A stretch of 58,958 nucleotides of DNA, counting the filler, from Basidioascus undulatus (Eukaryota): the NCBI GenBank assembly GCA_000826855.1. It is 5 parts of 5 records of this genome, joined end to end, with 100 filler letters (N's around TTAATTAATTAA, not from the genome) between each part and the next. Parts side by side here need not be neighbours in the genome. Positions count along the whole stretch, not along the records: positions 19,067 to 28,970 come from JTLS01001197.1; 4 more parts are not named here. One strand, given 5' to 3'. A program made the translations under genes and the position numbers. Shown here piece by piece: positions 19,067 to 28,970 of this stretch; the stretch's first letter is position 1; each line of letters begins with the position of its first letter. The notes beneath the pieces are model-generated. The model made no database searches, was not told the DNA's origin, and worked only from the letters and a program-made list of their open reading frames with translations.

Positions 19067-19068
19067 CA

Positions 19069-19659
19069 CTTGGGAAACTCGAAGCGTGGGCACACCCGGA
19101 CGTCGCGCTCATTCCACTGGGGTCGCGCCTCACAGCAGGGACTGGCAAGTCGGTGGTAGTTACGTACGATCCCTCAATCCTCGAGCTAACAAACTCGAGT
19201 AGCGACGTGGCCGCCTTCGACAGCGTTGTGGCAGCGAAGTGGCATGCGAGGGCACTACTGCCTCCGGGGATGACTCCAGGCGAGCTCTGCAGGCTTGTCC
19301 TTGCTTGTGACGGCTACTCGTTGAGGTCCTCCAACTTCCCTAAGGTGAATGACTCTGCGGTAGTGGCTGCGTGGAGGAAGATAGGGACACTCGGCAAGGT
19401 ACTGGCAACTCACGGCCGGTGGATCGAGACCAGCGCCCGGCTTCGCACGGACGCCGGCTTCATGCAGTCACTGAACGCAGACATGGCTCCCTGGCCCTCG
19501 GATACGCCCCTCCCGGTCCGGGACCTGGACTGGCCCGCGGATGATATTTTGAGAAACGACGCTCCGACGGCGGTACGCGGAGGAGGGGTGTCATACACGC
19601 ACATGGGGGTGCTGATGAAGCTGCAGTCCCTGAGGGACGAATCAAGTGTCGATGTCTAA
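19069..19659 (+). CDS. 5'-truncated ORF; probable C-terminus of an RPB1/beta'-like RNA polymerase large subunit plus a ~170-aa extension
   Basis: The frame is open from the contig edge: LGKLEAWAHPDVALIPLGSRLTAGTGKSVVV. LG-x5-GTG matches the spacing of RPB1 region H (IMLGQLAPAGTG). Support is one motif plus the neighbouring genes. Confidence 0.45.
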   Translation, partial: LGKLEAWAHPDVALIPLGSRLTAGTGKSVVVTYDPSILELTNSSSDVAAFDSVVAAKWHARALLPPGMTPGELCRLVLACDGYSLRSSNFPKVNDSAVVAAWRKIGTLGKVLATHGRWIETSARLRTDAGFMQSLNADMAPWPSDTPLPVRDLDWPADDILRNDAPTAVRGGGVSYTHMGVLMKLQSLRDESSVDV

Positions 19660-20523
19660 AACCTGCAGGCTCCCCACAAACGCCCCGCTTCCCTGGCCCG
19701 AGAGCGCAGTGCGTATCGCGGACGCGAGAGCGGAGTATAGTCCTGTCATCCCCGAGGGCTTGCCATTAAACTGGAGGTTCCCGACCGGCGACACCCCGAG
19801 ATAGCTGTAGTCTGCGTCACCTGCCAACTGACCAGATCTGACGAGGTGCCAGCCTCCCCTACTGGTTGACTGTGTGACGAACGTATACCCTGCGGGCAGG
19901 TAGCGTACGAGTATCTTGAGGCTGTCGGCCCCGAGGTAGCAGAAGATAGGGTCGTACCCCTCGTATAGGAGCCAGAAGGTAAGCTTGGAGCCCCCTACGT
20001 TGAGGAACGCTACGGTATCACCCGGGTGTCGCACTGTCAGCCCACGGTCCACCGCTGCGTGGTAGGCTGCTAGCGACAACCTGCCCTGGACCTGGGAGGA
20101 ATTCCTGTACTCCCGCACCGTCACAGAACTCGGCTGAGCACCCGCCCTCACGAATTCGTCACGTATAGTAAGTAATGAATGCGTCTCTCCCTGCATCTTC
20201 ACTGTAGCGGAGCTTATCAAGGGCTGTATCATGGAGCAGGCGACGGCGAGGCCTGAGGGATACACCCAGTTGCCGAGTGTCCACACACACCTCCAGTCGG
20301 ATGAGATAGCTCCCTGTCCCTCCCCTACTACCCCTAGCGCGCGGGCTATGGCATTGAGGTAGTGCTCCGAGGTGGGGTCGAGGGTAGAGAGGGGGCTTTG
20401 GCGGTGAACCAAGTCAGGGTCTTCTGGTTGTGGGCCCCGCAGTAGACCTCCGGCAGCGAGCTGTGCCCTTCTCTCACGGCTGAACGAGTAATTGGTGAGG
20501 CGCCGGCCCCCAGAGGTAGCCAT
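19642..20523 (-). CDS. Hypothetical protein, possible degenerate ASKHA-fold (Ppx/GppA- or GDA1/CD39-like) domain
   Basis: Intronless ORF, first ATG at 20523 (MATSGG). SSQVQGRLSLAAY...VAFLNVGGSKLTF resembles Ppx SGxEEARL...VIDIGGGSTE, but the acidic residues are amides. The ORF is solid; the function is weak. Confidence 0.4.
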   Translation of the reverse strand: MATSGGRRLTNYSFSRERRAQLAAGGLLRGPQPEDPDLVHRQSPLSTLDPTSEHYLNAIARALGVVGEGQGAISSDWRCVWTLGNWVYPSGLAVACSMIQPLISSATVKMQGETHSLLTIRDEFVRAGAQPSSVTVREYRNSSQVQGRLSLAAYHAAVDRGLTVRHPGDTVAFLNVGGSKLTFWLLYEGYDPIFCYLGADSLKILVRYLPAGYTFVTQSTSRGGWHLVRSGQLAGDADYSYLGVSPVGNLQFNGKPSGMTGLYSALASAIRTALSGQGSGAFVGSLQVLDIDT

Positions 20524-20570
20524 GGGGGGAGTGAGCACAGGCAGCTTACTGCTGTGGTGCCACCTGTGCC

Positions 20571-26745: not shown

Positions 26746-26757
26746 TTTTCAAAATCC
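26746..26757. terminator. Putative bidirectional 3'-end signal TTTTCAAAATCC (GGATTTTGAAAA on the minus strand)
   Basis: Starts immediately after the RPB2-like TAG and overlaps the capping-enzyme TGA; identical to the 12-mer at 21530-21541. Confidence 0.55.
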
Positions 26758-28968
26758 GCGGTTTCTCACAAGGTAGAGGTTATCCAGTATCGGGTCAACG
26801 TTCGGGTCCCACTGCCTGCCAGGCAGGACTGACGATGCCCGTTCCGCGTAGAGGGCCCCCGTAAGCTCGTGGGACAGCAGGGGCCTCTCCCTGATGGTCG
26901 TGGCACCTGGCCAACGGACAGTAGCAAGCCCGTCCCCTTCTATCTTCATGCTGACCCCTGAGCAGTCGACTAGAACGCCGTCACTGCCTGCGTCGTCGTA
27001 GAGGTAGCCGCACCCTATGACGCTTACCCCCCAGTCGGAGATGGCGGCCATCTCGTCGGCCACGTAAGTGACACTGAACGCGGCGACTGCTGCGGAGATC
27101 ATTCTCCTCACCCTCCTCGCTACCTCCCTGTCCTGCAGGAGTTCGGCTGCTGTGCACTCCAGCACTACATGACTGATGGACCCCTTCTGAAGTGCGCCGA
27201 GGGTACCGGTCAACGACGGGTCACCGAGCTTTGCGTGCACGACCCGCCTGCCTCCTCCTGTAAGCGCGCGCACTAACATCTGGGAGTTCTCCGGACTGGG
27301 CTCTACATGGAGGTACCGGACCGGACTCCTGCCCTTCGAGTCCAGGGAGGCGTACTGAGGCAGGGACTGACCCCTCCCTGCGCCGAGATCGAGAATCACT
27401 CGCGAACCACCCCGACCCGCTGCTGCTGAGTATATGACGCGCTTAAGCTCAGCGCACACGGCCTCCGCTCTACCAATGGCGAGGGGGTCACCTTCCTCGC
27501 CCGCCGCTGACTGGAGCACCGCAAGGCAGGCGGCCGCATCGTTCGCTAGCGCCTTGTCAGGCCTATGGAACACCTCGAGCACCTCCACGCTGGGGAGGCC
27601 ACCCCCACCTCCGCCGCGTGCCACTCTAACGCGCAGCTCCACAATGTCGCCTGTCTCAAAGGCAAGGTCTTCACTAACCTCCCTCACGAGAACGTGCCCG
27701 TCCTCAGTCTCGAGCTCGTATCGGCCATTGACCTTGAGCTCAATGGACTTGACATCCTTCACCTTCACGGTTATGCCTGTGTCCTGGGTCACCGCAACAA
27801 GCCCGTCGGTAGGGAACCCGCACTCCAGCGAATATCTCGTGGCCTCGGTGGCAGAGGGGAAGTACTCACGCACTAGCACGTCGATGCCCAGCTCGCCTAG
27901 TGACTCAAGTCTGTCCGCTAGCTTGCTGATCGGCCTACTTAAGGGAGCAAGGTTCCCTGAGGGCCCCATGAGAATGTCTATGAGGACGTACGTGCTGCTC
28001 GTCATGACCTCAAGATCAAGAGCGGGTCCCACGTTCGAGTACTCCTTGAATGCGCTACTGACCACGGAGCCTGTGACTTCCCACGTAGAGGTGCGCCTAG
28101 TGAAGAGCCATAGACATCCACACCTTATTGCAAGGAACCTCTCCCCGTCTGCCTTTGCAGTGAACAAGCAACCGGGTGGTACCCGTAGCACGTCTACGGC
28201 ACGGGGCATGAGTTGCCTGAGGGCAGACATATGTGCCGGCCTTACTTCACTCCTGAGCGTAGTGGGAGTGCCCAGCGATGACACCACACAGGCAAGTGCG
28301 TCCAGCACTCCCTTCTCTGTCCATCCTGCCCCGGATCTTATGGTAAGGTGAAGGGGGCGCCCACTCTTCGAGGTCCATACCGTAGAGTAGAGCCCGGTCT
28401 CAGGGAGCGCTAGTTCCACAGAGTACGCGACTACAGCACCTTCGCGTGCTTGGGGGTCCGCCGGCACCTCCCATTCCTCCCCCCGTACGAGCGTGACGTC
28501 AGGCGCTATGAGAGTGGTAGACCGAGCCAGGAGCCCACGCGCGTGGCTCCGGCTCCCTTCTTCAAGCAGGAAGGTGCACGGCCTCGCCAGCCCGTCTACT
28601 CTGACCTGCATCGTGAATGCGCTCACAGGCGTGCGCTTGCGGAGCTGCGCCGCCTGCTGTACTGCGGGGTGGCGGAGGTAGAAGCCCGTAAGCCTCAATG
28701 CGGTAGCCTTCGACGTAAGCTGAGGCACTGGAGGGGCTCTCAGGACTCTGCCTTGTAACGCCCTCAGCTTGGGTACTGGGAACCTTGACGGAGGTTGGAC
28801 TACCAGGCCTCTGCCCAGTGTCGACCCTACGGCAGCGGTTCTGTCGGTATCCAGGGGGCACGCTGTGCATATGCGTACCCGACGAGGCGGTTCGTCCGCT
28901 GACCTGGCTTGGTAGGTCACCACCTTCACGGGGGCCCCGCAGTATTCGCATAGGTCCTGAGGGGGCAT
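26749..28968 (-). CDS. mRNA capping enzyme (guanylyltransferase + SAM-dependent cap methyltransferase) with an N-terminal TFIIS-like zinc ribbon
   Basis: N-terminal CEYC...QARSADEP....CTAC. GTase motifs I KADGER, III LDLEV, IIIa YVLIDIL, IV TDGLV, V KVKD and VI RPDK..AN. MTase motif VILDLGAGRG. The ATG is 2 nt from the gap, so the ORF may extend further upstream. Confidence 0.9.
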   Translation of the reverse strand: MPPQDLCEYCGAPVKVVTYQARSADEPPRRVRICTACPLDTDRTAAVGSTLGRGLVVQPPSRFPVPKLRALQGRVLRAPPVPQLTSKATALRLTGFYLRHPAVQQAAQLRKRTPVSAFTMQVRVDGLARPCTFLLEEGSRSHARGLLARSTTLIAPDVTLVRGEEWEVPADPQAREGAVVAYSVELALPETGLYSTVWTSKSGRPLHLTIRSGAGWTEKGVLDALACVVSSLGTPTTLRSEVRPAHMSALRQLMPRAVDVLRVPPGCLFTAKADGERFLAIRCGCLWLFTRRTSTWEVTGSVVSSAFKEYSNVGPALDLEVMTSSTYVLIDILMGPSGNLAPLSRPISKLADRLESLGELGIDVLVREYFPSATEATRYSLECGFPTDGLVAVTQDTGITVKVKDVKSIELKVNGRYELETEDGHVLVREVSEDLAFETGDIVELRVRVARGGGGGGLPSVEVLEVFHRPDKALANDAAACLAVLQSAAGEEGDPLAIGRAEAVCAELKRVIYSAAAGRGGSRVILDLGAGRGQSLPQYASLDSKGRSPVRYLHVEPSPENSQMLVRALTGGGRRVVHAKLGDPSLTGTLGALQKGSISHVVLECTAAELLQDREVARRVRRMISAAVAAFSVTYVADEMAAISDWGVSVIGCGYLYDDAGSDGVLVDCSGVSMKIEGDGLATVRWPGATTIRERPLLSHELTGALYAERASSVLPGRQWDPNVDPILDNLYLVRNRGF

Positions 28969-28970
28969 GA

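Follow-up and report, generated by a model that had tools for sequence, protein, structure and literature searches.

Contig JTLS01001197.1 of the Basidioascus undulatus genome assembly (GCA_000826855.1) probably represents about one-third of a 25–36 kb double-stranded DNA (dsDNA) element that encodes its own transcription and replication machinery and belongs to a widespread lineage of which we found no description. The window analysed here is a stretch of 58,958 nucleotides in which separate contigs are joined by runs of N. The element contig occupies positions 19067–28970 and, since it is bounded by such runs, is a contig of its own; it contains 9,904 bases with a GC content of 0.606. A first-pass annotation made from the sequence had proposed that its genes are typical of cytoplasmically transcribing dsDNA elements. 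A self-transcribing element, and not a cell, is supported as their origin by an RPB2-like RNA polymerase subunit family, by a fusion of a TFIIS-type ribbon with a putative capping enzyme, and by the DNA polymerase, RPB1-like and ATPase genes that accompany these two in relatives.

Coding structure and transcription genes of the contig

Seven intron-free open reading frames (ORFs) are tiled over both strands of the contig, leaving 241 non-coding bases (97.6% coding) and intergenic spacers of 3–114 bases. The longest ORFs starting from ATG encode 831, 739, 531, 318, 312 and 293 amino acids (aa). By comparison, no ORF of the five other chunks of the window exceeds 277 aa. When the bases of the contig were shuffled 300 times, the mean length of the longest ORF was 178 aa and the maximum 326 aa; 500 aa was reached in 0/300 shuffles. 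ORF structure and density are far above chance and above those of the neighbouring contigs, as had been claimed for seven intronless, tiled ORFs set against intron-rich genes on the other contigs. The further statement that the fragment is without a capsid, packaging ATPase or DNA polymerase gene agrees with a Pfam scan of the seven ORFs. Two of the proposed gene assignments had to be rejected: no ORF of the contig gave a VP39-like match in Pfam at E up to 1, and a tblastn search of the window with the ORFs of relatives, among them the RPB1-like ones, returned nothing RPB1-like, the relatives having that gene elsewhere on their contigs. Outside the contig, in the other 49 kb of the window, the same tblastn search found no second copy of the element, and no Rfam families or tRNAs were found in the window.

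The two transcription genes have the following features.

24250–26745, + strand: RPB2-like second-largest RNA polymerase subunit, compact, 831 aa from the ATG at 24250; a TTG lies at 24235
26749–28968, − strand: ribbon-capping fusion, 739 aa, with TFIIS ribbon, triphosphatase-like-homologous region, putative guanylyltransferase and putative methyltransferase
28855–28947 (aa 8–38), − strand: TFIIS-type zinc ribbon with RSADEP loop, by Pfam Zn_ribbon_TFIIS
about aa 60–250 of the fusion, − strand: region homologous by alignment to the triphosphatase-like part of relatives, without their acidic motifs
about aa 255–480 of the fusion, − strand: putative guanylyltransferase, KADGER at 272 and RPDK at 469
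about aa 515–739 of the fusion, − strand: putative methyltransferase, LDLGAGRGQS at 526

The RPB2-like ORF matches Pfam Rpb2_6 (PF00562) at 2e-16, with 60.5 bits against a cut-off of 23.4, confirming the initial assignment of this gene. The protein contains the motifs NYEDA, GDKVSTPHGQKG and GEMEVHA and a C-terminal Cys cluster, and the GDK..HGQKG and ED metal-site motifs of the hybrid-binding domain were placed at aa 486 and 589. A family profile matched archaeal Rpo2 (6.8e-28), yeast Pol II RPB2 (4.5e-26) and vaccinia rpo132 (8.2e-18) in the PDB, all matches being confined to the C-terminal third (profile positions about 530–790); the N-terminal half of the protein (about 830 aa) is family-specific. 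Fourteen full-length homologues of 758–861 aa were identified at 29–37% identity on contigs of 4–36 kb. None of them bears a function name, 13 being unnamed and one labelled 'hypothetical protein', and no description of the lineage was found in the full-text literature, subscription journals not covered; both findings support the earlier suggestion that the lineage is undescribed. When 1.84 billion representatives were searched with the profile, 174 RPB2-like proteins were retrieved at E<=1e-30, many of them matching the N-terminal half. In a viral-contig collection, giant-virus RPB2 was nearest, at 23–27% identity over residues 400–800. The best 80 of the 390 matches in that collection included no member of the family and no full-length match, so the usual virus-finding pipelines may miss the lineage.

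A FastTree phylogeny of 124 RPB2 sequences and 344 columns, built without eukaryotic Pol I, II or III, yeast-plasmid or baculovirus sequences, placed the 62 family sequences (that of the window and 61 relatives) in one clade on a long stem, with 30 giant-virus-type sequences from the viral collection and 27 archaeal sequences on the other side (support 0.996). In this tree the family lies outside the sampled giant-virus clade and does not branch within Nucleocytoviricota. The phylogenetic check proposed with the first-pass annotation is thereby answered in part: the family stands apart from giant-virus-type and archaeal sequences, the groups sampled. Nine longer family proteins were also seen, and in five of these (P0105, P0107, P0100, P0096 and P0088) a predicted DNA polymerase and the RPB2-like subunit form one chain, which confirms the linkage of the two genes. 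Such joint chains could be true fusions, products of read-through or merges made by gene calling.

The adjoining capping ORF begins with the ribbon. Its match to Zn_ribbon_TFIIS (PF01096) is marginal, at 21.5 bits against a cut-off of 21; RSADEP is found at aa 22 between CxxC pairs, and a PDB profile search with the whole capping protein matched the ribbon alone (RPA12 ribbon, E 0.05). The TFIIS ribbon reported at the outset is therefore present, at the N-terminus of the capping ORF and not as a separate ORF. In cellular enzymes, a ribbon of this type reaches the active site via the secondary channel.

In the central part of the protein, columns K272, D274, G275, E320, D388, G389, K404, R469, D471 and K472 are invariant in 7/7 homologues, as are the KxDG, DG, RxDK and D-G-G-Q columns. 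We take these, in order, to be guanylyltransferase motifs I (KxDG), III, IV (DG), V and VI (RxDK). Further towards the C-terminus, the methyltransferase motif I columns (hhDhGxGxG) D527, G529, G531 and Q534 are likewise invariant, with no Pfam or PDB match for this part. The motif columns, invariant in 7/7 homologues, uphold the previous assignment of a capping guanylyltransferase, joined to a putative methyltransferase; the ORF as a whole scores 18.4 bits with Pfam LEF-4, below the cut-off of 20.2. Acidic ExE-type motifs (EYEVR..., ELE...) precede the guanylyltransferase in three relatives of the group termed B. Two such strands presumably form the motif of metal-dependent, tunnel-type RNA triphosphatases. 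At the aligned columns (28219–28791 region of the window) they are absent from the window protein, which belongs to group A, and from three further group A sequences (L084, L161 and P0043). Within the capping gene, an antisense ORF of 305 aa (27434–28351, + strand) was also observed; it has no homologue among the relatives' ORFs and is most likely a by-product of the high GC content.

Relatives and the wider gene set

Relatives were found on contigs of 20–36 kb, mostly metagenomic, and on three contigs in a bacterial isolate assembly. All three near-full group B contigs, two group A contigs and the isolate-assembly contigs have a common gene content with partial synteny; the shared genes are those for the capping fusion, the DNA polymerase, the ATPase and the RPB1-like subunit, together with the families F2, F3, F4 and F7 described below. 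Compared with the contig in the window, relatives (metagenome contigs of 20–28 kb and the isolate-assembly contigs) additionally encode a family B DNA polymerase, an SF3-type ATPase, an RNase H and an RPB1-like subunit. The RPB1-like subunit spans 600–650 aa and carries DYDGDE or DFDGDE in 5/5 proteins. In the DNA polymerases, Exo I–III and polymerase motifs A, B and C are invariant in 5/5 sequences; matches to Pfam PF00136 range from 3e-35 to 4e-38, and in the PDB the best scores were obtained with archaeal PolB (7e-46), followed by Pol delta (2.5e-38) and a poxvirus polymerase (about 1e-35). Gene order around RPB2 is the same in the window and in its closest group, with the UNG-like gene and F7 upstream and the capping gene downstream, all on the opposite strand. 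From these sequences we infer that the missing part of the element would encode an RPB1-like subunit (DxDGD), a primer-dependent family B DNA polymerase, an SF3-type ATPase and an RNase H.

Members of the lineage differ in GC content (0.33–0.61) and in accessory genes. The latter include a 3CxxC zinc-binding protein (L083:13920-14693, 3.2e-16), a PIF1 helicase (L161:6846-8138, 7e-37), an APH-like kinase (L086:18132-19049, 7.7e-10) and a weak macro-domain match (L084:838-1161). The member in the isolate assembly (G001, labelled Streptomyces) is made up of L161, L244 and L241 on contigs C65, C63 and C104. It totals about 24.8 kb with a GC content of about 0.50, against 0.69–0.74 for the neighbouring contigs, and a 63-base overlap connects two of its contigs. 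In that bacterial assembly, neither tubulin nor actin nor histone of the eukaryote type was found, which indicates that element DNA can far outnumber host DNA in a preparation.

Neither capsid nor A32 families were detected in Pfam scans, which covered the seven ORFs of the contig, 48 from three relatives and 19 from the isolate element, the ORFs without assignment having had no fold search. As for A32-type ATPases, only the SF3/AAA-type ATPase and the PIF1 helicase were found on the relatives' contigs, which are partial. The group B family F10 has the size of a capsid candidate, but is by eye rich in helix and low-complexity sequence. The element contig and five relatives, all available without complete ends, showed no terminal or long inverted repeats, and none was found when the ends of the isolate-assembly contigs were compared. 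Terminal inverted repeats with bound terminal protein are a feature of the pGKL2-type elements of fungi discussed below.

UNG-fold and TBP-like proteins, conserved families and intergenic signals

The remaining features of the contig are listed here.

19067–19659, + strand (reading frame 19069–19659): F3, 3' part of an ORF truncated by the contig end; core gene of the lineage
19642–20523, − strand: F4, 293 aa, probable TBP-like two-repeat protein, by predicted structure
20524–20570, no strand: divergent spacer of 47 bases with an imperfect palindrome at 20536–20556
20571–21527, + strand: helix-rich ORF of 318 aa, positional and weak sequence counterpart of family F13
21549–23144, − strand: F2, 531 aa, UNG-fold N-terminus followed by a Ser/Pro/Ala-rich linker and a short C-terminal domain
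22443–23111 (aa 12–234 of F2), − strand: family 1 uracil-DNA-glycosylase fold, by predicted structure, Foldseek and VIA
23145–23258, no strand: intergenic region with a perfect hairpin at 23161–23176 (6-bp stem, 4-nt loop)
23259–24197, − strand: F7, with conserved Cys pairs (CxxC near the C-terminus), 312 aa counted from its first ATG; core gene
24198–24249, no strand: divergent spacer of 52 bases with palindromes at 24215–24222 and 24222–24233

The sequence of F2 gave a sub-threshold Pfam UDG match (1.2e-3) and no match in a PDB profile search. Its AF2 model (pLDDT 69) retrieved UNG in every row listed by Foldseek, the best at E 4.8e-5, and was aligned with human UNG by VIA at Z 10.3 over 181 of 223 residues, the root-mean-square deviation (rmsd) being 3.7. 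The predicted structure thus bears out the UNG fold behind the earlier UDG-like assignment. The catalytic Asp is replaced in 7/7 members, the window protein having SQSPY and six relatives GQSPY, GERPY or GQSSY in place of GQDPY, which we take to be the motif bearing the catalytic Asp of family 1 uracil-DNA glycosylases. The poxvirus uracil-DNA glycosylase serves as a DNA polymerase accessory, and by analogy F2 is probably a non-catalytic replication accessory.

For F4, the AF2 model has a pLDDT of 79 and a pTM of 0.81. TBPs were the only PDB structures to span both halves of the protein: 1mp9_B was aligned at Z 6.5 over 145 residues with an rmsd of 3.9, and further TBPs followed at Z 6.2 (7o4i_O) and Z 6.0, the aligned range being 141–145 residues. 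In Foldseek, 1ais_A was matched with a probability of 0.97 and E 6.6e-3. Among the predicted viral structures of BFVD, the best match was an unnamed protein (E 7.7e-6), with named viral TBP-like proteins weaker. The PDB sequence-profile search with F4 gave a best E of 0.076 to an unrelated protein. Homologues are present in five relatives. On the basis of the model, F4 is probably TBP-like and a candidate for a promoter-binding initiation factor.

The F3 and F7 families and that of the ORF at 20571–21527 are conserved and without assigned function. In profile clustering, F3 groups with ORFs of L083, L086–L088 and L244 and has no Pfam match; F7 groups with ORFs of L086–L088 and L244 and has no match in a PDB sequence-profile search. 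The 20571–21527 ORF matches L083:4632-5672 in BLASTP at E 2.6e-4 and has the same location between F4 and F2; no Pfam family scored above cut-off.

The spacers contain candidate signals. The 47-base spacer at 20524–20570 is a candidate bidirectional promoter, and the hairpin at 23161–23176 is a candidate terminator of the upstream gene or a candidate element of the F2 promoter. In the window's closest group, perfect hairpins of at least 5 bp occur at 12.6/kb in the 50 bases upstream of starts, against 4.1/kb elsewhere, and 26 of 51 genes have one upstream. In the other group, AACATTT is found nine times in 2,250 upstream bases, against 0.15/kb overall. The hairpin and AACATTT motifs were picked after inspection, and these figures are therefore descriptive and not a test. 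Three diverged genomes (L086, L087 and L088) share the words AACATTT, ATCCATT/ATGCATT and ATCAATTA, recurring 15–40 bases upstream of starts; each of the three words seems to go with a gene set of its own, a hint that there are promoter classes. Yeast plasmid mRNAs terminate at stem-loops (PMC6211774), and the element's hairpins could thus be terminators, promoter parts or both.

Regarding the window itself, runs of N lie at 9051, 18967–19066, 28971–29070, 38970–39069 and 48966–49065, with chunks joined by a TTAATTAATTAA spacer. Chunk sizes descend steadily (9915, 9904, 9899, 9896 and 9893), which resembles a size-sorted fragmented assembly.

Occurrence, alternative explanations and known systems

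Three sequencing runs contain the sequence, one of them possibly the source of the window. X1 and X3 come from the same sample; only X2 is independent, deriving from a different study (2014) with one organism label. In X2, 96% of sampled words were recovered, with exact pieces at a contig depth of 406–527 beside many variant contigs that are 90–99% alike at depth 17–70; the contigs of this run total 34.6 Mb. A deletion variant lacking 23155–24755 (1.6 kb, comprising F7 and the first third of RPB2) is common to X2 and X3, and the deletion is bridged by 39 letters resembling the spacer 23157–23195. The depth pattern suggests a high-copy master form beside older, partly rearranged copies. With regard to the host, an MFS transporter exon on a neighbouring contig (50918–52057) shares 48% identity with a protein from Psilocybe, the remaining named matches being to ascomycete and basidiomycete fungi. 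Since all these matches are fungal, the neighbouring contigs are fungal, and Dikarya-like at most. Most likely, the fungus to which the surrounding contigs belong is the host of the element. Of the association with a Dikarya fungus that had been proposed, the fungal nature of the neighbouring contigs stands, and the link of the element to that fungus is an indirect one.

The gene set speaks for an existence outside the nucleus, either as a virus or as a virus-like plasmid without a capsid. A minimal two-subunit polymerase would transcribe the densely packed, intron-free genes, the TBP-like factor guiding it to very short promoters (spacers of 47–114 bases, often with hairpins). The N-terminal ribbon may tether the capping enzyme to this polymerase, so that transcripts would be capped while emerging, and may also supply transcript cleavage. 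For replication, the element would draw on a polymerase, an ATPase and an RNase H of its own, and the probably non-catalytic UNG-like protein would be a DNA polymerase accessory, as in the case of the poxvirus glycosylase.

Several observations weigh against this reading of an autonomous element. The RPB1-like, DNA polymerase and ATPase genes are absent from this contig and are attributed to the element through its relatives. No capsid, packaging ATPase or terminal repeat was recognised on the contig or its relatives, leaving the word 'virus' unproven. Guanylyltransferase and methyltransferase identity rests on motifs and the sub-threshold LEF-4 match, the PDB profile search having matched only the ribbon and neither enzyme; and as the window protein is without ExE-type motifs, the triphosphatase step is unaccounted for. 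The F4 match to TBP is middling (Z 6.5; Foldseek E 6.6e-3), and sequences of eukaryotic Pol I, II and III, yeast plasmids and baculoviruses are absent from the RPB2 tree. The depths quoted here are contig depths and not read depths or copy numbers, and the host link is indirect. X3 contains mostly 90–95% variants at depth 22–55, which would fit integrated or rearranged copies, and so would an 8.7 kb contig of the same run in which 285 bases of the capping gene adjoin unlike sequence. The three large pieces in X1 are unequal in depth (318, 132 and 59); this is not expected of a single uniform episome and would also fit integrated or rearranged copies.

The last observations raise the possibility that an endogenised multi-copy element, either a viral relic or a large mobile element, is integrated in the chromosomes of the fungus, and that the contig is one of its copies and not a free replicon. 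We consider this unlikely, albeit the strongest of the alternatives. The many contigs of 90–99% similarity in X2 and X3, the deletion form (23155 to 24755) in both, the 8.7 kb junction contig and the unequal X1 pieces all speak for it. However, all seven ORFs are intact in a contig that is 97.6% coding, the main form in X2 has about 10–20 times the contig depth of the variants, and the relatives are compact 20–36 kb contigs without host flanks. The differences in X3, 351 transitions against 28 transversions in both directions, suit coding sequence under selection and not decay. Integrated relics and a free form can coexist. Alternatively, the element might be that of a different organism present in the sample, for instance a protist, a mycoparasite or a culture contaminant: its relatives are mainly metagenomic, one occurs in a bacterial isolate assembly without eukaryote markers, and no contig was seen that links the element to a fungal gene. 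This seems rather improbable, as a near-identical sequence is present in the run of another study, eleven years earlier and with one organism label, diverged copies occur in that run at depth 17–70 among contigs totalling 34.6 Mb, and the GC content of 0.61 is inside the range of the neighbouring fungal contigs.

Two further explanations concern the nature of the genes. The kinds of gene present are typical of Nucleocytoviricota, and giant-virus RPB2 is nearest in the viral collection at 23–27% identity; both points speak for a fragment of an ordinary, merely divergent virus of that phylum with a genome of >100 kb. We hold that origin to be very improbable: no family member is among the best 80 of the 390 matches in that collection, none of which is full-length, and in the RPB2 tree the family lies outside the sampled giant-virus clade. 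Furthermore, the DNA polymerase, both RNA polymerase subunits, the capping enzyme and the ATPase fit within 20–36 kb contigs of relatives, and the RPB2-like protein is shorter by ~400 aa (about 800 aa, compared with at least 1,000 aa for most giant-virus locus ORFs). That an intron-poor contaminant eukaryote contributed the ORFs as cellular genes is hardly credible, and this reading was rejected. The C-terminal half of the RPB2-like protein does match cellular RPB2, but only profile positions about 530–790 of a protein of about 830 aa align; the capping fusion lies within 3 bases on the other strand, a DNA polymerase gene adjoins the RPB2-like gene in relatives, and 0/14 close homologues have an NCBI, nr or UniRef source.

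A self-transcribing element of 25–36 kb thus remains the preferred reading. To our knowledge, the 13 kb yeast helper plasmids are the only small elements known to have a polymerase of their own. If the reading is true, the lineage, with separate subunits, a primer-dependent polymerase and a ribbon-capping fusion, bridges giant viruses and helper plasmids; a natural minimal system of multi-subunit polymerase and capping enzyme becomes available for study; and the proposed giant-virus origin of fungal plasmid transcription genes becomes testable by phylogeny. According to a 2026 paper, neither Ascomycota nor Basidiomycota have yielded a dsDNA virus (PMC13348850). Nucleocytoviricota genomes start from about 100 kb, and all members that reproduce in the cytoplasm encode RNA polymerase subunits, according to PMC11253617. 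More tentatively, and with the balance against it, the element could be the first such replicon from Dikarya, representing a deep, widespread, unnamed, capsid-less lineage of eukaryotic DNA elements of 25–36 kb with a two-subunit polymerase, ribbon-tethered capping and giant-virus-type replication, whose members would be descendants or early relatives of the giant-virus ancestor and possibly the long-sought donors from which fungal killer-plasmid-like elements obtained their transcription genes.

The lineage, taken as the window and its relatives, has much in common with Nucleocytoviricota such as poxviruses and asfarviruses: an RNA polymerase of its own of the multi-subunit type, a ribbon like that of TFIIS, a capping enzyme of several domains with a guanylyltransferase and a putative methyltransferase, a probable TBP-like factor, a family B DNA polymerase and an SF3-type ATPase, together with a protein of the UNG fold. 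Of this gene set, the RPB2-like subunit and the capping enzyme were found in the window and the DNA polymerase and RPB1-like subunit in relatives. There are also differences. Contigs of the lineage span 20–36 kb, whereas Nucleocytoviricota genomes are given as at least 100 kb in PMC11253617. The RPB2-like subunit is about 800 aa and the RPB1-like subunit about 600–650 aa, the ribbon and the capping enzyme form a single fusion protein, neither a capsid nor an A32 ATPase nor VLTF3 was recognised in the lineage, and its RPB2 lies outside the sampled giant-virus clade.

The cytoplasmic linear virus-like elements of fungi of the pGKL2 type (killer and helper plasmids), known from Saccharomycotina, Mucoromycota and Zoopagomycota, are likewise small, dense and intron-free, with a compact RNA polymerase and a capping enzyme; their transcription enzymes are of giant-virus ancestry and stem-loops lie near gene ends (PMC6211774, PMC13348850). 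They differ in their DNA polymerase, which is protein-primed and fused to a terminal protein, and in their size of 9–13 kb (PMC13348850). The polymerase of the lineage is of the primer-dependent type, with strong PF00136 matches and a single match to PF03175, the protein-primed family, at 8.4e-4. A beta/beta-prime fusion with a small subunit is described for pGKL2-type elements in PMC6211774, whereas the RPB2-like and RPB1-like genes of the lineage are separate and non-adjacent. The A/T content of pGKL2-type elements exceeds 75% (PMC4431711), compared with a GC content of 33–61% in the lineage. Unlike them, the lineage has a UNG-like gene, an RNase H and an SF3-type ATPase.

Mriyaviruses resemble the lineage in their small genomes (35–45 kb), their relationship to Nucleocytoviricota and their origin mostly from metagenome mining. 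They have no DNA polymerase and no RNA polymerase subunits, but encode capsid proteins and an HUH endonuclease, according to PMC11253617. The lineage is the reverse, with polymerases present and a capsid not recognised.

In baculoviruses, LEF-4, LEF-5, LEF-8 and LEF-9 make up a small polymerase set in which the beta-like and beta-prime-like subunits are compact and are accompanied by a capping subunit and a ribbon protein resembling TFIIS. A weak likeness to this system is seen in the LEF-4 match of the window protein (18.4 bits, cut-off 20.2) and in a LEF5_C match of a relative (19.4 bits, cut-off 24), both below their cut-offs. LEF-8 gave no match for the RPB2-like ORF of the window at E up to 1, LEF-9 gave none for the RPB1-like ORFs of relatives within E limits of 0.01 and 0.05, and per os infectivity or other baculovirus genes were not seen. 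Taken together, the lineage resembles both the transcription and replication core of Nucleocytoviricota and the cytoplasmic elements of fungi, yet departs from the defining features of each.

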